From: Spirochaetaceae bacterium
Lineage (GTDB): Bacteria; Spirochaetota; Spirochaetia; DSM-2461
Assembly (NCBI GenBank): GCA_051531975.1
Contig: JAOPTT010000007.1
Span: 56,985-120,984, forward strand
Length of the DNA: 64,000 nt
Direction: 5' to 3'
The notes beneath the pieces are model-generated. The model made no database searches. It was not told where the DNA came from and saw only the letters and a program-made list of their open reading frames with translations. The position numbers and the translations under genes are program-made. Positions 2 to 36,809 of the stretch are shown here, in pieces; the stretch's first letter is position 1; the number at the start of each line of letters is the position of its first letter.

Positions 2-1489
2 GTATCTAAACCTCCAAATAAAGGTGAAATTATAGAAGTATCTGGGCTTGGTGTTAGTACTCCTGAAACAGTTGTTGGAAACTCTCTTTATAGAGTTTCT
101 GTTCGTTCATGGATATATACTGCTCTAGAAGTTGGTGCTGTTAAAATCCCTTCAGTAAGAGTAGATATTAATGGATTAACAAGGTATACCGAACCACTAG
201 AATTAAAGGTTCTTCCTCTACCTGAAGTTAATGCAACTGGTGGAGTTGGACAATTTATAATACAGAGTGAAGTTGATAGCACCCAAGTAACTCCAGAAGA
301 TATATTTCATTATAAAGTTAGGATTTCTGGCCAAGGAAATCTTCCTTATATAAAATATCCAAATGTTGATTTTTCAGGAATAATACTAATTGATAAAACA
401 GAAACAAGCTCCATCGGTCATAGTGAAAACGGTTTTTTAGGCTGGAAAGAACTAGACTTTACCTTACAGGCACTAGAACCAGGAGTTAAAGAGATCAGAC
501 TATCAGAAGTTAGCTGGATTAATACAAATGGGTTTGAAATATTTTTTAATGGCTCGGTTTCAAATATCAATGTAGTATCAGTTAAAGTTGTCGAAGAGGA
601 TATTCTTCCTTTTCTTTCATTTATGACAACTCCAGAAATAATAAGTTCTTATACTGTGTTTTTATATAAAAAACCATTTATGTGGGGGCTACTTTTTTTA
701 AGTCCATTTTTACTTTTAATAATGAAGTTCTCCAAAACTATAAAGTTAAATAGGGAGAGGAAAACATTGTTAATTACTGCTGCTTTGATTCCATTTTTAC
801 TTCTCTCTTCAATATTTGCAAAAGGATTTGAGTATCAAGGAGATCTAGTTGTAGCCGAAAATTTCATCAATTCTGGGGAATATGAAAGAGCTCTAGAAGT
901 ATATAATAAATTGAGTGATAAGCTACCAAATAATTATGGTATATTTGTAAATAAGGCTATACTTTGTGATAGGCTTGGTGATATTGCCCATGCTGTTTAT
1001 AATATTAGAATTGCGGAAAGAATCGTTCCTGATAATAAAAAAGTACATCAGGTTAAACTTTATCTCTCTGATTCGGAAGAATTTAACCAGAAGCAGGCTA
1101 AAACATCAAATCCAATAAACCCTGATTATATATTTTTAATACTTATAACTTTTTTTAATATTCTTTTTATTGTAAGCATTCGTTTAATTAAAATAAAAAG
1201 CATAACAGCTTTTTCTATGTTTTTTACAATTATTTTATTTACATTATTAGCTACTATCTTTTTAATATATGTTGATATGCGTAATAGTATACAAGCTGGT
1301 GTTATTGATAATGGAGGAGCTTTATTAACCAAAGTTCCAAGTCAAAATGCATTGGACTGGATGACACTAGGAGAAGGACACTGTGTATATATTATTGGTG
1401 ATTGGGAAAGTAAATATTTAATAGAAACTGAATATGGCCTACAAGGCTGGGTTGAAAAAGACTCTCTGTTAGTTTTTGAAGAAAGGTAG
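2..1489 (+). CDS. BatD-like protein with C-terminal TPR, membrane and SH3-like (BatE-like) region; 5' end outside window
   Basis: Frame of ORF 623..1489 is open back to position 2 (…NATGGVGQF…ISGQGNL…, BatD-like beta repeats), then TM, TPR helices, TMs and a GLQGWVEK SH3-like end. Confidence 0.75.
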   Translation, partial: VSKPPNKGEIIEVSGLGVSTPETVVGNSLYRVSVRSWIYTALEVGAVKIPSVRVDINGLTRYTEPLELKVLPLPEVNATGGVGQFIIQSEVDSTQVTPEDIFHYKVRISGQGNLPYIKYPNVDFSGIILIDKTETSSIGHSENGFLGWKELDFTLQALEPGVKEIRLSEVSWINTNGFEIFFNGSVSNINVVSVKVVEEDILPFLSFMTTPEIISSYTVFLYKKPFMWGLLFLSPFLLLIMKFSKTIKLNRERKTLLITAALIPFLLLSSIFAKGFEYQGDLVVAENFINSGEYERALEVYNKLSDKLPNNYGIFVNKAILCDRLGDIAHAVYNIRIAERIVPDNKKVHQVKLYLSDSEEFNQKQAKTSNPINPDYIFLILITFFNILFIVSIRLIKIKSITAFSMFFTIILFTLLATIFLIYVDMRNSIQAGVIDNGGALLTKVPSQNALDWMTLGEGHCVYIIGDWESKYLIETEYGLQGWVEKDSLLVFEER

Positions 1490-29630: not shown

Positions 29631-30533
29631 ATGGGTAACTATATAGGAGAGATTGCATCCTTTGGAACAGTTATCTGTTGGATAGTATGTTCTATGGCAT
29701 TTGAAAAAGCCGGAAAAAAAATTGGTTCCATGACTGTTAACTTAATAAGGCTTATATTTGCATTAGTTTTTATATGTATCATTACTTATATTACACGAGG
29801 TTTTATCTTACCAACAGATGCTACATCTAAAACCTGGTTTTGGTTGTCTCTATCTGGAGTTGTAGGTTTTTTTATTGGAGATCTATGTCTGTTCAGAGCT
29901 TTTGTGACAATAGGATCCAGGATTTCAATGTTAATCTATTCCCTAGTTCCACCAATATCCGCAGTATTAGGTCTAGTCGTATTTAATGAAAAAATGTCTG
30001 CTATCGCAATTGTAGGTATGATCGTGACTCTTGTAGGAATTGGTTTTGCAATTCTAAAAAAGACAGATAATAAAATTAGCTTTTCTCATCCAGTTAAAGG
30101 AGTAACTTTAGCTGTAATTGGAGCAATATGCCAAGCTCTAGGTGTTGGACTTAGTAAATTTGGTATGACTTTAACTGATGGATCGATATACGACCCTTGG
30201 GCCTGTACTCAGATTCGAATAATATCAGCTACTATATGTTTTATTCTGCTTTTTATATTTACAAAACGATGGTCATATATTAAAAAGGCTATTGTTATGC
30301 CTAGACCTATGGTAGAAGTTGCAGTTGGATCTGTTTTTGGCCCTGTAATAGGTGTTACTTTAGGATTAATCGCAATTACATATATCTCTATGGGTGTATC
30401 ATCTACTATTATCGCAGTTTTACCTGTAGCTATAATAATACCCCATGTTATATTTTACAAAGAAAAAATACATCTAAGAGAAATTATAGGTGCTGTAATA
30501 ACAGTTATTGGAGTCTCTTTATTGTTCATTTAG
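29631..30533 (+). CDS. DMT/EamA family transporter
   Basis: 10 TM in two repeats; SGVVGFFIGD. Confidence 0.88.
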   Translation: MGNYIGEIASFGTVICWIVCSMAFEKAGKKIGSMTVNLIRLIFALVFICIITYITRGFILPTDATSKTWFWLSLSGVVGFFIGDLCLFRAFVTIGSRISMLIYSLVPPISAVLGLVVFNEKMSAIAIVGMIVTLVGIGFAILKKTDNKISFSHPVKGVTLAVIGAICQALGVGLSKFGMTLTDGSIYDPWACTQIRIISATICFILLFIFTKRWSYIKKAIVMPRPMVEVAVGSVFGPVIGVTLGLIAITYISMGVSSTIIAVLPVAIIIPHVIFYKEKIHLREIIGAVITVIGVSLLFI

Positions 30534-31379
30534 TAAAAAATCTACTAGAGAATTAACACCTACCAGACTATTTTTATAGTTATCTATATGGTTGTTACTA
30601 TCTAGTTCTATATCTAGAGCAGTAACACCTTCAATTTTACCTGTGTATGAAATTAGTTCCCCTTCAAAACGTTCTATAATTGCTTTTGCTGGGGTATACA
30701 TTGTTTCAGGGATATAACTAGATGTTTTAGCAAAAGCTTTCGCCATTTCCCAGGCCCTATTATTTATTAAAATTTCACCTTTTTCTACACGGTATTCAGG
30801 GTAAACTCTGCCTTTATCCATATAACCATGAAAGGATAATATTGTAACATTTTTATGTTCTGCTTTTAATCTATCTATTAATTCCACCAAAAGTCTTGTA
30901 GATGGTAGATACATCTCTAAAAAATCCCTATTTGGATCAACATATCTGTTTATTCCATTTTTATATGTTTTGTCATTTCCATAAAATATTCGGTAAAAAA
31001 GTTTCTTATCGAAGTTTTCTAATGGACTCTTTTTAATAACATAACCCTCTGAATCAAGATGTTCTTTTAGATATCCACGTCTGCCTTTAATAACTTCAAC
31101 GCCTTTAATTTTTTCTTTTATTGCGTATATTGTTGGATTTATAGAGGGAATAAAGTAGGTAGTTATAGGATAATTAGAATTGAGGCGAATATGGTCTACA
31201 ACTTGGCTTGTGTAGGATTCATCCCCATGAATTCCACCAATAATTAGAAGAACATCGTCGGTTAATTGCCCGTTATTATAAATAAATATTGGATTGTGAC
31301 CAGAATCCTCTCCTAAAACATCTAATGCATTTATGGAAAGAGATGATATTATAAATAATGTAGCAATAAAATATTTCAT
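30519..31379 (-). CDS. secreted M14-family zinc carboxypeptidase-like protein
   Basis: Signal peptide; GGIHGDE (HxxE), DPNRDF, SFHG. Confidence 0.72.
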   Translation of the reverse strand: MKYFIATLFIISSLSINALDVLGEDSGHNPIFIYNNGQLTDDVLLIIGGIHGDESYTSQVVDHIRLNSNYPITTYFIPSINPTIYAIKEKIKGVEVIKGRRGYLKEHLDSEGYVIKKSPLENFDKKLFYRIFYGNDKTYKNGINRYVDPNRDFLEMYLPSTRLLVELIDRLKAEHKNVTILSFHGYMDKGRVYPEYRVEKGEILINNRAWEMAKAFAKTSSYIPETMYTPAKAIIERFEGELISYTGKIEGVTALDIELDSNNHIDNYKNSLVGVNSLVDFLLNEQ

Positions 31380-31420
31380 ACTTATTTAAAGTTAGTATAT
31401 TCCAATGTTTTGTGCAAATT

Positions 31421-31444
31421 AAAAAGGGGAGAAGCTCCCCTTTT
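31421..31444 (-). terminator. intrinsic terminator of the ECF operon
   Basis: AAAAGGGGAG-aag-CTCCCCTTTT. Confidence 0.8.
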
Positions 31445-31448
31445 ATTA

Positions 31449-31964
31449 CTAATTCTTCTTAATTATTTTACTAGCAACTAAAAATAGAACTCTACCACCA
31501 ATTAATCCACCAAATAGTTGGATTGTATTTGTAGGGAACAGTTCACCTATCGCCATCTCCATTCCACCTATATCTTTTAGGAAGAAAGCTTCTCCAATAA
31601 AATAAGTGGCAACCATTAAAACTCCACCAATTAATAAAATTAATAGATGTTTAATTCCCTTTTTCTGGAAAGATAAATATGCCATCGCCGCTTCCAAACC
31701 TTTTGCTATAAAAGTCATTGGAGCAAATATCCCATATCCTAGATATAGATCCGCACAGGCTGTCCCTAGACCGGCAACTAAAAATGCTGCAGCTAAATTG
31801 CCCCATTTTTTATCCCCAATAAAATGAGCAATAAAAAGTCCAGAAAATACAACAGCAACGTCGCTGAAATTAAAAAAACCTACCCCAACAGGGATAGCAA
31901 CAAATACCGTCGTTAGAGATACCGTTGCAAAAAGTACGAGTAGTGTAATTACTCTTTTAGTCAT
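31449..31964 (-). CDS. ECF transporter S component (HmpT/PdxU-like)
   Basis: IPVGVGFFNFSD…GTACADLYLGY…APMTFIAKGLE. Confidence 0.85.
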   Translation of the reverse strand: MTKRVITLLVLFATVSLTTVFVAIPVGVGFFNFSDVAVVFSGLFIAHFIGDKKWGNLAAAFLVAGLGTACADLYLGYGIFAPMTFIAKGLEAAMAYLSFQKKGIKHLLILLIGGVLMVATYFIGEAFFLKDIGGMEMAIGELFPTNTIQLFGGLIGGRVLFLVASKIIKKN

Positions 31965-32590
31965 GTTTTCTCCTCTAAAATGTGCTCTCTTTCAAGAAGC
32001 AGTTTATGTTTATGTTCAAATCCTCTATAAATACCAAAAAATAAGCTAAGTGGTACCGCCAAGTAGTGTGATACCATATCTAACCATTTTTTTGAACTGT
32101 TTTCTGGATGATGTTCATAATGAATTCTTAACCTTTCCATAACCTCGATACCAGCCACAAAAAGAATATAAATCACCTTAGTTTTTTTACTATTTTTAGA
32201 TAGTAGCATAATATCAATAATACTTACTTTTGAGATTAAAATATTAAAAAATGCGAATATATTAGGAATTATAAATACTCTAATAAAAATAAGTCTCCAC
32301 ATTCCAGTATAGTAATCTATTGCAAAATCCCATCCTCTTCCAATACCTTTTACAAGGAAAAATATTATGTGAAGAATAAGTATTACAATAGCTAAGAATT
32401 TGGTAAAACCAATAAAACTTTTAAGGTTATCTCTGTTAGTAGAAGCGTAATATATTACAACTGTTAAGTAGACTATTATTTGGTATGTTATATTTTTACT
32501 AAAAGTATTAGTAGTTAAATATATAAAAGCTATTATAAGTAGAATTAAAATAGTAAATTTAACTCTCGCTTTAAGAAATAAGGAATTCAA
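31961..32590 (-). CDS. divergent ECF transporter T component
   Basis: ARVKF start resembling PRxK, several TMs, position between the ATPase and S component. Confidence 0.55.
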   Translation of the reverse strand: MNSLFLKARVKFTILILLIIAFIYLTTNTFSKNITYQIIVYLTVVIYYASTNRDNLKSFIGFTKFLAIVILILHIIFFLVKGIGRGWDFAIDYYTGMWRLIFIRVFIIPNIFAFFNILISKVSIIDIMLLSKNSKKTKVIYILFVAGIEVMERLRIHYEHHPENSSKKWLDMVSHYLAVPLSLFFGIYRGFEHKHKLLLEREHILEEKT

Positions 32591-33185
32591 TATTTACTCC
32601 TTGTATATCTTTAGTCAAAGTTAGATTCTTCTGGTTATTTATAAGCTTGTCTGTGTTATTTAGTATATGGGATATAATAAAAATGTTTTTAACTTTAATA
32701 GAGGTAATAAAATCGGTGAAATCCTTTGATGATACGAAGTATTTATCAACTTCATCAAATATTATCACATCTGCATCGTTAAATTTTTTACACTCACCTA
32801 AAATAAAATTATATATAGTTCCACTATTAGGATCTAATACTTCTTCCTGATTAAAATCAAGTTTAATGGATTCATGGGCATCATCGTTTAGGAATATAGT
32901 TTTAAAGAATGACTTCTGTTTCTTAAGACCTCCAATAAACTCTTTTACTAAAGATATTAGTTTATATGAGAGCAGTTGGTTTTCAATATCTTGGGCAAAA
33001 TAGAGTGTTTTAAGGGATCTATCTTTGAACTCTTTTAAGAGCACACCTTCTATAAACCTACTCTTCCCAATACCATTTTCCCCTTGTAATAGGTAAACAG
33101 CATCTGAGTTTAGAGAAATATCATCTTTTAATTTATATGATGTTTTTGAGGTTGAATCATGGTAATTACCCCTGTTTAGTAACAT
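32571..33185 (-). CDS. ABC/ECF ATPase lacking the signature motif
   Basis: Walker A GENGIGKS, Q-loop FAQD, Walker B IIFDE, switch IISH; no LSGGQ. Confidence 0.75.
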   Translation of the reverse strand: MLLNRGNYHDSTSKTSYKLKDDISLNSDAVYLLQGENGIGKSRFIEGVLLKEFKDRSLKTLYFAQDIENQLLSYKLISLVKEFIGGLKKQKSFFKTIFLNDDAHESIKLDFNQEEVLDPNSGTIYNFILGECKKFNDADVIIFDEVDKYFVSSKDFTDFITSIKVKNIFIISHILNNTDKLINNQKNLTLTKDIQGVNIEFLIS

Positions 33186-33516
33186 TGATGCCCCGTTCTT
33201 TTAAGTATTTTACTATTTTATCTCTATTTTTTGATGTAAGAGATTCTAAAATGTTATTAAGTTCTAAATCTATATTTTTAATATTTTTCTCTTCTAATAT
33301 ATAAGCAAGGGTTATTAAATAAGTAAGGGATCTTTGTCCACCACTTAGTGTATTTATATCTCTATTTAATCCTACCTGAAAATTAAAAAGATCATCAATA
33401 TCTTTTAATATTAGGGACTCGTTTAAATTAAAGCTAAATATATCATTAAGTAGTAGCTCATCCTTAATTTTATTAGAGATAAATTCATGGCTATAGTCTA
33501 TATTTAAAGATCTCAT
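33166..33516 (-). CDS. signature-only ABC ATPase-derived protein
   Basis: RDINTLSGGQR; no Walker A or B; own AGGGAG RBS. Confidence 0.65.
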   Translation of the reverse strand: MRSLNIDYSHEFISNKIKDELLLNDIFSFNLNESLILKDIDDLFNFQVGLNRDINTLSGGQRSLTYLITLAYILEEKNIKNIDLELNNILESLTSKNRDKIVKYLKERGINVTKQG

Positions 33517-33611
33517 TAGGCTCCCTTTGGCAGAATAATAGCTTATTCAGGATTTTTACACTAGTATATTTAATACTTTGAAATAAATCTTAAATGGTAC
33601 ATAATATTCCA

Positions 33612-34265
33612 ATGATATTTAAAGAAAATACAATATTAGTTAATAGTTCAGATCATAGCTTAATGGCTTCAGATATAGCTGAAGAAGGGCAGGAATATGT
33701 TCATGTAAGAGCTCTTATTCCCATATTATCATCAGAAGAAATGCAGAATGTATTATTAGAATTTCAGAACTTCTCTTGGCAACGTAGAACAACGTTTTGT
33801 GGAGTATGTGGTACAAAAAGTATCCTAGATGATTCTGAGGGTTGTAATACATGCCCAAATTGCTCCGAGAAATTCTTTCCAGCTCAGTTCCCTGCAGTTA
33901 TAGTAGCAATTATAAAGGGTGATGAAATATTATTGGCCCATAATGTTAACTTTCCAGGAGATATGACTTCTATTATTGCTGGTTTTGTTGACCTAGGTGA
34001 AAATGCTGAAGAAGCTATTAAGCGCGAAGTTATGGAAGAGGTTGGGTTAAAAGTTAAAAATATAAAGTATCACAGTAGTCAAAATTGGGGTTTTACTTCT
34101 TCTTTGATGTTAGGTTATACCGCAGAATATGAGTCCGGAGAGATTAAAATCGATGAAGTTGAAATCGATAAGGCTGGTTGGTTTAATCGAAATTCAATGC
34201 CAGAGACTCTGCCTCCTAAAATAAGTATTGCCAGAGCTATAATAGATGATTTCATTAAAGGCTAG
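33612..34265 (+). CDS. nudC: NAD(+) diphosphatase NudC
   Basis: FCGVCG…CPNC zinc ribbon, Nudix box AGFVDLGE…REVMEEVG, SQNW (SQPW-like); start at 33612 inferred from promoter position. Confidence 0.88.
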   Translation: MIFKENTILVNSSDHSLMASDIAEEGQEYVHVRALIPILSSEEMQNVLLEFQNFSWQRRTTFCGVCGTKSILDDSEGCNTCPNCSEKFFPAQFPAVIVAIIKGDEILLAHNVNFPGDMTSIIAGFVDLGENAEEAIKREVMEEVGLKVKNIKYHSSQNWGFTSSLMLGYTAEYESGEIKIDEVEIDKAGWFNRNSMPETLPPKISIARAIIDDFIKG

Positions 34266-35229
34266 TTTCAGATCTAATATTATTATATTTGTATCGACTC
34301 TATTACTCGTTTCTTGTCAGACACTAAATTTCCCATCTGAAGAGATTTTACAAGAGAGAGAACTTCTAAGAAGTAAACGATCAAATTTAAATGATGATTG
34401 GGTCCCAGCGGATCCACTTTTTGATAAATATTATTCAGAAATGGCCCAAGGAGTTCCCGGAGCAAATTATTACCCTATTTGGTTTGATTCAATCGGTTCA
34501 AAAATGAATGGAATTATATTAACACCTGCTTCACAGGAAGAACCGGAGCTTAAAAGTAAGGGCACTGTTTTACTTATTCATGGTTATGCAGGAAACCTTA
34601 GAGGTTACAGGTTTTTAATTCCAGAACTATTAAGTGAAGGTTATACTGTAGCCGCTTTATCACTACCTGGGCATGGCTTAGCAGGAGGGGATAGGGGAGA
34701 TATTGATAACTTTAATAATTACGGTATTCTTGTACATGATTTCTTAGAGCAGTTAGAGGGTAAAATACCTAAACCTTATAATGCTGTTGGCCACAGTACT
34801 GGTTGCTCAGCCCTTATGATATACAATCAGGATTATGGATGGGACTTTGATAATGTTGTTTTTATAGCTCCACTAATAAGATCTTCAGCATGGTACCCAT
34901 CTGTCACTGTTCGGTTTTTAACTAAACCTTTTATTCAATATTATAATACTCCTTGGAGTGGGGCTATAGCTGTACAGGTTTTTCCAATGCACTGGCTCGA
35001 TGAACTTAAAAAATGGAATAAAGAAGTAAAAAAGTACAATGTTAAAGACGATGAAATATTGATTTTCCAGGGTGACAGGGATAGTGTTGTAGACTGGAAA
35101 TATAATACAAAGTTCATTAAGAGCAAGTATGCAAATAGTAGCCTAATTTTAAAAGAGGGTGGTTCTCATACATTTTTTTTCAAGGATGAAGAGTTGATAA
35201 CTGATATTGTTGGTTATTTTAATAACTAA
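34246..35229 (+). CDS. alpha/beta hydrolase lipoprotein (lysophospholipase-like)
   Basis: LVSC lipobox, IHGY, PGHG, GHSTG, GDRDSVV, SH. Confidence 0.85.
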   Translation: MISLKASFRSNIIIFVSTLLLVSCQTLNFPSEEILQERELLRSKRSNLNDDWVPADPLFDKYYSEMAQGVPGANYYPIWFDSIGSKMNGIILTPASQEEPELKSKGTVLLIHGYAGNLRGYRFLIPELLSEGYTVAALSLPGHGLAGGDRGDIDNFNNYGILVHDFLEQLEGKIPKPYNAVGHSTGCSALMIYNQDYGWDFDNVVFIAPLIRSSAWYPSVTVRFLTKPFIQYYNTPWSGAIAVQVFPMHWLDELKKWNKEVKKYNVKDDEILIFQGDRDSVVDWKYNTKFIKSKYANSSLILKEGGSHTFFFKDEELITDIVGYFNN

Positions 35230-36809
35230 AATATACAATATTGGTTTCTACCAGATTCTTTTGCTCTATATAAAGCCTTATCAGCCATTAATATAAAATC
35301 TTTAATCTCATCATTGTCCTTAGGTGACATAAATGCAATACCAATACTGAATGTTACAAATTCTGCTATTTCTGACTTTGCATGTCTAATATTCAGTTCT
35401 TTCATATCTGCTAAAAGTGATTTCGTTAGTTTAATTATATCTTCATTATCATTATTGGAGAAGATCAATCCAAATTCTTCTCCTCCATACCTAGCAGCAA
35501 GTTCTCCCGCTCTTTTAGTCTTTTTAGCTAGTAACTGACCGATTTTTTTTAAGCATTCATCTCCAGCCTGATGACCATAATAGTCGTTATAGTTTTTAAA
35601 ATAATCTATATCTATCAGTAATAAGGTTATATTTTTTTTAAACCTTTTTTGACGATTCCACTCTAACAACAATGTTTCATCAAATTTCCTTCTGTTTCCA
35701 ATATTTGTTAACGCATCGATTGTTGAAAGTTTTTTTAACTGCAATCTCTGTTTCTCTATTTTTGTAATAAAATAATTGAATGCCCTAGTTAGATCACCAA
35801 TTTCATCTTTACTTTCAGTTCCTAAGCGGATAGAAAAATCATTGTTTTTCATTATGGAGGTCATATGTTTATCAAGTTTAAGTATTGGATATAAAATATA
35901 TTTATTAAGTAACAAAATGATTAACAATAGAACTATAATTCCTGCGATAATAATGGAAATTGTTGCATATTTTATTATACGTTTACCCTGTTTGGATATA
36001 GTTCTGGGAAATACAATCTTAATTAGAAAAGATGGGTTTCCCTCTATATCATAATAGTAACTGTATAAATTGTAGCTGGAGTCATCACTGTTTTCTTCTA
36101 TATATAATGGTTTTTTATTTAAACTATCTGTAATTGACTTATATGCTTCTATATCTGAATTATTATAGAGATCAATAATATCAAACTCTACACTAGTCTG
36201 TGCACTTATCTTTTTAATTATATCATCGTTTAAAATAATGCCCATAATCATGAATCCATGACTTGGACCTTCTGCTTCACTTGTTAATATAAGCTCTGTA
36301 GTAATTAAAACTGGTCCTTTTTCTGTATTATACACACCTACTATCTTGTATTCTGATAAATCCTGTATGTTGTTTTTTATATTTATAATAGGATGATCTA
36401 TTACGAAATTATCCTGTGGAAAGTTTTTAAGATTTATCTCTTTATTGTTCTCCAAATCAAAGACTTTACCCCAAATGACATCACCCTCTGTATTAATAAT
36501 ATAAATTAAACTAAGACCGATCTCATTAAATATCTGATCGGTTAGATTTGAACTAATAAATTCATCTGAATTATCCATAACAAAATTGTATGTATCATCC
36601 CATGTGGCCCAGTCATTACAAAGTGTATCCAAATGATCGATCTCATTATTTAATGCATCAACTATGCGTTTCATGTTATTTGCGGCTTCTTTTTTCTCCA
36701 ATGATAAAAAGGCTGGTAAAACAACAAAACTTTGTATCATAGATACGCTGATTGTGATAAGTGAAAACAGGATAACTACGATTAGGGATGTTTTGTATTT
36801 AATATTCAT
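35226..36809 (-). CDS. CHASE4-HAMP-GGDEF diguanylate cyclase
   Basis: DWATWDDTY (CHASE4), DEIGDL (HAMP), RYGGEEF. Confidence 0.92.
   Translation of the reverse strand: MNIKYKTSLIVVILFSLITISVSMIQSFVVLPAFLSLEKKEAANNMKRIVDALNNEIDHLDTLCNDWATWDDTYNFVMDNSDEFISSNLTDQIFNEIGLSLIYIINTEGDVIWGKVFDLENNKEINLKNFPQDNFVIDHPIINIKNNIQDLSEYKIVGVYNTEKGPVLITTELILTSEAEGPSHGFMIMGIILNDDIIKKISAQTSVEFDIIDLYNNSDIEAYKSITDSLNKKPLYIEENSDDSSYNLYSYYYDIEGNPSFLIKIVFPRTISKQGKRIIKYATISIIIAGIIVLLLIILLLNKYILYPILKLDKHMTSIMKNNDFSIRLGTESKDEIGDLTRAFNYFITKIEKQRLQLKKLSTIDALTNIGNRRKFDETLLLEWNRQKRFKKNITLLLIDIDYFKNYNDYYGHQAGDECLKKIGQLLAKKTKRAGELAARYGGEEFGLIFSNNDNEDIIKLTKSLLADMKELNIRHAKSEIAEFVTFSIGIAFMSPKDNDEIKDFILMADKALYRAKESGRNQYCIF

Follow-up and report, generated by a model that had tools for sequence, protein, structure and literature searches.

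How much of a two-site ATPase motor can be lost from an energy-coupling factor (ECF) transporter, and can a partner domain of less than half the usual size still complete the ATP site of the other domain? The question is raised by a four-gene operon in the genome of a Spirochaetaceae bacterium (assembly GCA_051531975.1, contig JAOPTT010000007.1, positions 56,985 to 120,984; this whole stretch of 64,000 nucleotides is referred to here as the window). The operon encodes, head to tail, proteins of 116, 204, 209 and 171 aa and ends at a terminator. The initial annotation described it as an ECF transporter whose ATP-binding cassette (ABC) motifs are divided between the first two proteins, such that a single ATP site would be left. 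The usual ABC transporter holds two ATP molecules between a pair of full domains. Many of these transporters have one degenerate site, for which a role in holding the dimer together, a role in allosteric control or no role at all has been proposed, and this is a long-standing question. Our analysis indicates that the operon probably encodes a dedicated (group I-like) ECF-type importer with an ATPase module reduced to one composite ATP site, and the best-supported reading of the sequences would be a derived ECF module from which an already-degenerate ATP site has been physically deleted. The observations behind this reading are the motifs, the predicted folds, the conservation of the proteins, the colinearity of the operon with canonical relatives and the correspondence of the two small ATPases to the two nucleotide-binding domains (NBDs) of those relatives.

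Judged by its motifs and its predicted fold, the 204-aa protein is an ABC-type NBD of minimal but complete form, without a signature of its own. The Walker A motif is G35-E-N-G-I-G-K-S42, with G35, N37, G38, G40 and K41 invariant in all 17 aligned 204-like sequences. The same is true of Q65 (Q-loop), D144-E145 (Walker B) and H173 (H-switch); these motifs follow each other in the canonical order and line up, in hhalign comparisons, with their counterparts in 98 other NBDs encoded by this genome. In the profile alignment, the canonical LSGG falls on P119-N-S-G, where P119 is invariant and the residues after it are variable in the aligned set, as expected from the initial description of a protein with Walker A, Q-loop, Walker B and H-switch but no LSGGQ. 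The AF2 model (pLDDT 86.2, pTM 0.81) was compared with 48,161 PDB representatives by VIA-align, and all 50 matches listed were ABC-superfamily ATPases (Z 9.8–11.6, 143–187 residues aligned), among them VmlR (Z 11.6, rmsd 3.4, 157 aligned), the EcfA-A' structure 4hlu_A (Z 11.0, rmsd 3.6, 163 aligned) and 4huq_A (Z 10.1). The family also matched the profile of the 98 NBD domains of its own genome over residues 22–176 (Prob 97.9%, E 4.8e-13), and the family search gave nothing but sub-threshold P-loop matches for this protein.

The 116-aa protein carries what the 204-aa protein lacks. Its NTLSGGQR sequence (N55-R62) is invariant in 18 of 18 aligned 116-like sequences, as are Y8, E11-N15, D19-L21 and S92-L93, and the conserved positions of the family comprise the signature, a D-loop-like ESL[ST] and a post-Q-loop HEFISN..DEL. 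In a wider alignment of 20 sequences, the residues that are invariant besides Met1 are F12, E20, S58-G59-G60 and S92. The Walker A pattern GxxxxGK[ST] is absent. When the protein is aligned with canonical domains, the Walker B aspartate falls on the variable position 87, the position of the catalytic glutamate is N88 (asparagine in at least 90% of the sequences), and the protein stops at the strand preceding the H-switch, with no H-switch histidine. The annotated protein with LSGGQR and with neither Walker A nor Walker B is thus borne out by its alignment. The AF2 model (pLDDT 88.7, pTM 0.85) has strands at residues 2–7, 82–87 and 110–115, and its helix 59–76 begins at the signature. At least 45 of the 50 VIA-align matches listed for this model were ABC, SMC or Rad50 ATPases, and the NBD segment aligned was always the same, about 75–195, with some 105 of the 116 residues superimposed (rmsd ~3, Z 5.2–7.0; for example EcfA 4hlu_A, 76..195, Z 6.0, 106 aligned, and 1l7v_C, 71..190); ranks 25, 33 and 38 were unrelated folds. 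These weak structural scores agree with the profile comparison by hhalign, in which the 116 family matched the NBD profile of its own genome with Prob 89.8% and E 1.8e-6, the core of the alignment being residues 37–63 and its extended form pairing residues 4–116 with 78–194 of 248. The only Pfam match of the protein was SMC_N at 13.1 bits, below threshold. Searches of PDB sequences with both ATPase profiles and with the 171-aa protein gave marginal matches only, such as SMC3 (E 0.04) with the 116 profile. The weak matches of the family to SMC and Rad50 heads fall on the signature-bearing C-terminal head segment, but unlike those heads this system has no coiled coil and no Walker A half upstream, and its context is that of a membrane transporter.

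As modelled, the 116-aa protein would correspond to the central part of an NBD, comprising the Q-loop strand, the helical subdomain, the signature, a dead Walker B strand, the D-loop helix and the strand before the H-loop, which would amount to about 45% of such a domain. We take the three retained strands to be neighbours at one edge of the NBD sheet in the RecA-like topology, and a truncation of this kind would then be structurally clean.

Of 151 genomes sampled from the class, 32 have a homologue of the 171-aa protein, the ECF S component, and the nine loci compared around such homologues provide the canonical counterpart of this operon. In eight of the nine (L070–L077, from genomes G075, G011, G038, G054, G067, G081, G094 and G085), a fused double NBD of 439–512 aa is followed by a PF02361 CbiQ protein of 235–262 aa and an S component of 176–212 aa; the ninth, in genome G062, has a split layout and is considered below. 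The gene order of the eight is that of the window, with the ATPase or ATPases first, then the slot of the transmembrane (T) component and then S. Relatives with two full-length ATPases, which had been named beforehand as one half of what would speak against a single-site transporter, do therefore exist, in the form of fused double NBDs; the other half, neutral evolution of the short copies, fails (see below). In NCBIfam, the N-terminal half of the fused ATPases matched ECF_ATPase_1 best and the C-terminal half ECF_ATPase_2, in both cases under the equivalog cut-offs. In all eight, the first domain (NBD1) has an [LFT]SGGE signature and a Walker B DE (DET, DEP, DEI or DES), with serine or alanine replacing the H-switch histidine, and the second (NBD2) has Walker A GxNG[CS]GKST, DE and the histidine, with [LM]S[FY][SG]x instead of LSGGQ. 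Since the motifs of NBD1 and NBD2 are asymmetric in this way, the fused relatives already have one consensus site, made of the NBD2 catalytic set and the NBD1 signature, and one degenerate site. The fused ATPases of L070–L077 are also an instance, in their own right, of a built-in pair of consensus and degenerate sites within an ECF importer.

On profile comparison, the 116 family matches NBD1 and the 204 family NBD2. With hhalign, the 204 family aligned with NBD2 over 145 columns (Prob 95%, E 3.5e-8) and with NBD1 over 23 columns only (55%), and the 116 families gave Prob 91% and 96% against NBD1 versus 0.2% and 4.5% against NBD2; HMMER weakly agrees with this assignment. The gene order, with the small gene first, provides independent support for it.

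Fused double ATPases are known in group I ECF systems with the YkoEDC-type architecture (PMC5037267). The operon of the window shares with these systems, including L070–L077, the order of ATPase, T slot and S, a homologous S component (28–35% identity to those of L070–L077) and the pairing of an NBD1 signature with the Walker A, Walker B and histidine of NBD2. It differs from them in that NBD1 is cut from about 260 to 116 residues and is left without Walker A, the acidic pair of Walker B, the region of the H-loop and the C-terminal extension, in that the two NBDs are on separate polypeptides, and in that the T-slot protein, of 209 aa, cannot be recognised as CbiQ. Heterodimeric ABC transporters in which one site is of the consensus type and the other is degenerate are likewise well known, for example TM287/288 and other exporters (PMC3971661). 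There too, all departures from the consensus lie in one composite site and a single catalytic site is left; however, the degenerate site of the TM287/288 type persists and can bind nucleotide, whereas here the P-loop of that site is absent and no second nucleotide pocket can form. The motor can thus probably form just one ATP site. The idea of a single-ATP-site ECF transporter, first proposed from the complementary motifs, gains support from the folds, from the correspondence with NBD1 and NBD2, from the asymmetry that pre-exists in the fused relatives and from the non-neutral evolution of the genes.

The mechanism that we propose follows from this arrangement. The 204-aa NBD would bind and hydrolyse ATP by means of its Walker A, Q-loop, Walker B and H-switch. 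The 116-aa protein would be the remnant of the partner NBD, from which the P-loop half and everything from the H-loop onward have gone, and which would keep the Q-loop and helical part to seat a coupling helix (probably in one groove), together with LSGGQ and the D-loop. The two proteins would be seated next to each other on cytoplasmic helices of the 209-aa T-slot protein, the LSGGQ of the 116-aa protein would clamp, in trans, the ATP held on the 204-aa P-loop, and closure and hydrolysis at this single site would drive the toppling or release of the PF07155 S component. We infer here a heterodimer and a 1:1:1:1 complex, as well as transport, its direction and the existence of a substrate.

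The arrangement is found in more than one genome. A 204-like match was present in 3 of 38 genomes of the order, the genome of the window (G000) included, all of them in its genus, and both other genus genomes have the same four genes with the same flanks. Contig scans with the 204 profile gave one locus in genome contigs and one partial locus in metagenome contigs. The same beginning of the operon can be read on a partial metagenome contig, with a NudC-like gene, a gene of 113 aa and the first part of a 204-like gene. The closest S component outside the genus (43% identity) is that of G062, a genome of another spirochaete family, in which four genes are again laid out in split form, as a version of the system that looks more canonical (Table 1). 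The 125-aa protein of this locus has HTLSGGQQ, no Walker A and an aspartate at the N88 position; the 173-aa protein has GPNGSGKST, LIILLDEPT and ITHD, with ALSYLKK at the place of the signature; and the S component matches PF07155 at 2.7e-22. The small and large proteins match the families of the window with Prob 97.4% and 97.6%, respectively. The 219-aa T-slot protein gave Prob 56% against the EcfT profile over 44 columns only, which is not significant. A search for the four-gene order in other genomes, as had been suggested at the outset, thus finds it in two further genomes of the genus, with a similar split layout in G062. When the 125-aa protein was used as a query, G062 alone was found among 401 genomes of the class.

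A search of 1.84 billion representatives with the profile of the 116 family recovered 22 proteins at E<=1e-3, with E values down to 4.6e-13 for distant small relatives, and none of the 22 was a full-length or fused NBD. The small relatives (P0080–P0098, from metagenomes, 134–155 aa) have [YLF]SGG[QE], 'LLxN' and ESLS and no Walker A; 16 of the proteins recovered were scanned against Pfam, with nothing above threshold, and the cluster records of the 10 looked up held no informative names. The language-model neighbours of the 116-aa and 209-aa proteins were clusters without names, commonest in Thermodesulfobacteriota and Cloacimonadota, and provide a lead only. A broad small-protein profile, run on 401 genomes phylum-wide, returned SMC C-termini and ordinary ABC genes besides the window's own genome. 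One 147-aa candidate from that phylum (locus L052, genome G343) was rejected as the end of a broken SMC gene and not a half-NBD; at this locus, the SMC C-terminal head stands as a separate frame beside a 456-aa coiled-coil ORF, which may reflect a frameshift or an assembly error. There is perhaps an even chance that these systems represent a distinct class of ABC motor, one with no second nucleotide pocket, in which a signature donor of about 115–150 residues (a hemi-NBD) would work with a signature-less NBD on a scaffold diverged past CbiQ recognition, and which would extend beyond one spirochaete genus. The extension beyond one genus is suggested by the split 125 + 173 aa version in another family and by the small relatives and T-slot look-alikes in metagenomes.

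The remaining two proteins of the operon bear on whether it is an ECF-type importer at all. The 209-aa gene occupies the position held by the CbiQ gene in the eight related operons. Its product has hydrophobic N-terminal segments (hydropathy profile, 22-sequence alignment), and the C-terminal 70 residues, about a third of the protein, are conserved and amphipathic (YILMISGIEVMERLRIYYEYHP ... HYLAVPLxLFFGIYRGFE). Its language-model neighbours in the ESM Atlas included a cluster without a name at 0.91 and one auto-named cobalt transport protein, and in a cluster at 0.85 30% of the members have PF02361, again a lead only. Position and these weak language-model leads suggest that it may be the T component. 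The 171-aa protein belongs, as an ECF S component, to family PF07155 (E 8.7e-11, 42.6 bits, cut-off 26.7), with 78–83% identity within the genus and 28–39% identity to the S components encoded behind canonical fused-ATPase and CbiQ genes. No support was obtained in this analysis for the earlier suggestion of vitamin B6 or HMP as its substrate. The motif AxxxA within helix 1 of S components has been described as needed for docking to EcfT (PMC11109136), and it is intact in six of the seven aligned S homologues that have a canonical T, the exception being L077, with SxxxA.

In this genome, which is 98.5% complete, PF02361 is matched by BioN alone, encoded in a canonical BioY-BioM-BioN operon (contig C2, locus L006:199-2181), so no shared ECF module is available for the 171-aa S component. 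The BioY-BioM-BioN system resembles the operon of the window in having a dedicated ECF module beside its S component; it differs in that BioM is a canonical 248-aa NBD (GCNGSGKT, LSGGEKKR, ILDEP, ITHD) and BioN is a member of PF02361. A second, weak PF07155 match in the genome is MreD.

All four genes are conserved as such. There are 32 other relatives of the 204-aa protein, of 191–204 aa and 44–60% identity, 17 others of the 116-aa protein, of 113–120 aa and 52–66% identity, and 25 of the 209-aa protein; over the aligned sets (16 other 204-like and 17 other 116-like sequences), identity was 43–66%. None of these relatives is informatively named, and two are hypothetical proteins (204-like and 209-like) of Thiospirochaeta perfilievii. 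For 10 of the 17 116-like clusters and 15 of the 25 209-like clusters, the longest contig has the same size as that of a 204-like cluster, which points indirectly to linkage. When the window, L002 and L001 were compared by Nei-Gojobori counts, pN/pS was 0.35–0.44 for the 116 gene, 0.42–0.44 for the 204 gene, 0.39–0.45 for the 209 gene, 0.15–0.22 for S and 0.34–0.42 for the nudC-like gene next to the operon; synonymous sites are saturated (pS 0.64–0.83), so only pN/pS, and no dN/dS proper, is given. All four genes are under purifying selection, and neither small gene drifts neutrally: the neutral evolution looked for in the 116 and 204 genes is not seen, their values being equal to those of the T-slot and nudC-like neighbours.

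A number of results weigh against the single-site importer proposed here. The assignment of the small proteins to NBD1 and NBD2 depends in part on the same motifs in which the domains differ, and is not fully independent evidence. The Z scores of 5–7 obtained for the 116-aa model are under the level at which a match is safe alone. Foldseek, applied to the 204-aa model, mixed ABC with RecA-like ATPases at TM 0.4–0.55, and PF00005 (ABC_tran) reached only 13.6 bits on this protein, for a cut-off of 25 and over residues 23–68 only. The 209-aa protein had no match in Pfam (E<=1) or NCBIfam, PF02361 included, and its family showed no detectable homology to 29 spirochaete T proteins (hhalign, Prob 1.6%), reached Prob 0.2% against the eight T proteins of the related operons, and showed no similarity to the protein in the T slot of G062 (Prob 0.14%); its HMM found only itself among the 5107 ORFs of the genome. 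The initial label of the third gene as T-like stands for its position, which matches the CbiQ slot, and for the weak language-model leads, and does not stand for its sequence, in which homology to CbiQ or EcfT was not detected (Prob 0.2–1.6%). Finally, the docking motif of the S component is L9xxxA13 in the three sequences of the genus and VxxxV in G062. The altered AxxxA fits a changed interface between S and T, and would equally fit a partnership different in kind.

The strongest competing explanation is that the 204-aa ATPase acts alone or as a homodimer without a signature, and that the 116-aa protein, instead of completing an ATP site, has an accessory or regulatory function, acting on the T-slot protein as a brake or assembly factor, for instance. 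The 116-aa protein on its own is modelled with a confident fold, and its exposed edge strand and strongly conserved N-terminal HEFISN..DEL could serve some other contact. Yet no element of the small protein is conserved more strongly, in near as in distant relatives, than the SGG[QE] with which a long helix begins. SGG[QE] at a helix start has one known job in ABC ATPases, contact with the ATP on the partner NBD. In the fused relatives, moreover, the signature of NBD1 and the catalytic set of NBD2 are both intact and already form such a pair. We consider the accessory role improbable, although it is the best placed of the alternatives.

Another explanation would accept the asymmetric ATPase but not the micronutrient importer: the S-fold protein and its non-CbiQ partner might use it for export, sensing or membrane remodelling. 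The fold of S components is also found in receptors and in MreD (PMC11109136), the docking motif is altered and the T-slot protein is not recognisably CbiQ, all of which would suit such a role. However, the S protein passes the PF07155 cut-off and is homologous to the S components of eight canonical A-T-S operons with the same gene order, and we regard this explanation as less probable again than an accessory role. The view that the operon is no longer functional and that its two small genes are what decay has left of a canonical ecfA-ecfA' pair has hardly any probability left, for, although both proteins are under the Pfam ABC_tran threshold and one lacks both ends of an NBD, the genes have no internal stops and appear translationally coupled, keep their lengths (113–120 aa in 18 and 191–204 aa in 33 sequences) and their invariant motif residues, have pN/pS of 0.35–0.44 at saturated synonymous sites, as in their neighbours, occur in the same layout in another spirochaete family and have distant small relatives at E down to 4.6e-13, and these conservation data already contradict decay.

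The organisation of the operon is set out in Table 1. There is a 20-nt overlap at the 116/204 junction and again at the 204/209 junction, and an ATGA overlap joins the 209 and 171 genes. Ribosome-binding sites can be read before the 116 ATG (AAGGGAG), the 209 TTG (AAGGAG) and the 171 ATG (GAGGAG), and the junctions indicate that the four genes are translationally coupled. The terminator consists of the stem-loop GGGGAGCTTCTCC at 31440..31428 on the minus strand, directly past the last stop codon and followed by CCTTTTT; the tract 3' of the stem-loop is CCTTTTTAAT in the terminator scan. The order of the genes, the overlapping stops and starts, the terminator and the separate ribosome-binding site of the 116-aa gene agree with the initial annotation, and so does the lack of room for a lost N-terminus, since only 77 bp separate the start of the 116-aa gene from the divergent NudC-like gene and an N-terminal extension is impossible. 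Two explanations of the split by frameshifting were rejected: a frameshifted single gene, also dismissed at first annotation, because Walker A, Q-loop, Walker B and histidine are all found, in normal order, within the 204-aa protein by itself, and a 116–204 fusion, because the stop positions differ and no fused form occurs among 22 all-length profile matches. The offset between the 116 and 204 starts is 331 nt in three loci.

Table 1. Position of the operon, of its flanking features in the window and of the split operon of G062
Feature	Position	Strand	Basis or content
116-aa gene	33516..33166	minus	ORF
204-aa gene	33185..32571	minus	ORF
209-aa membrane protein gene	32590..31961	minus	ORF
171-aa ECF S component gene	31964..31449	minus	ORF + PF07155
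Intrinsic terminator	31421..31440	minus	terminator scan + sequence reading
Intergenic region 5' of the 116-aa gene	33517..33593	minus	77 bp, sequence reading
Divergent NUDIX/NudC-like gene	33594..34265	plus	Pfam; conserved neighbour
G062 split operon	L078:2313-4342		125 aa, 173 aa, 219-aa membrane protein, S

The 77-bp region, which the operon shares with the divergent NudC-like gene, presumably holds the promoter and includes the AAGGGAG ribosome-binding site; a promoter scan of its minus strand gave nothing above shuffle expectation. An Rfam scan of positions 31000–34000 (E<=1) found no riboswitch or other family at threshold. Its sole match was sraA, over the terminator hairpin (31385–31454, plus strand; 31.8 bits, cut-off 56, E 0.026), which is probably spurious. 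The NudC-like protein matches the Pfam NUDIX family (1.5e-15) and Zn_ribbon_NUD at 21.2 bits, under the cut-off of 24.8, and the divergent gene is kept in four independent loci (the window, L001/L004, which are one genome, L002 and L005); a link between this gene and the transported substrate is possible. On the other side of the operon, a 286-aa protein (30519–31379, minus strand) has a signal-like N-terminus and an IGGIHGDE motif and gave no Pfam match at E<=0.001, and its gene holds the same place downstream of the operon in L001 and L002. Farther off, the translation of the ORF for a 527-aa protein (35226–36809, minus strand) contains the GGEEF motif typical of diguanylate cyclases.

Our full-text literature searches found no prior description of a signature-only truncated partner in an ECF transporter; degenerate-site ABC transporters and fused ECF ATPases are already known. 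Modules of this kind are missed by annotation pipelines, the 204-like and 209-like homologues in the named relative being hypothetical proteins. The degenerate site has here apparently been removed physically, and the piece that is kept donates the signature and, we presume, provides the seat for one coupling helix. Should the four proteins work together as an active transporter, an ECF-type cycle would need no more than a single ATP site and half of a partner domain, and the system, at some 700 residues altogether, would offer a very small and tractable model for the mechanics of single-site ABC transporters.

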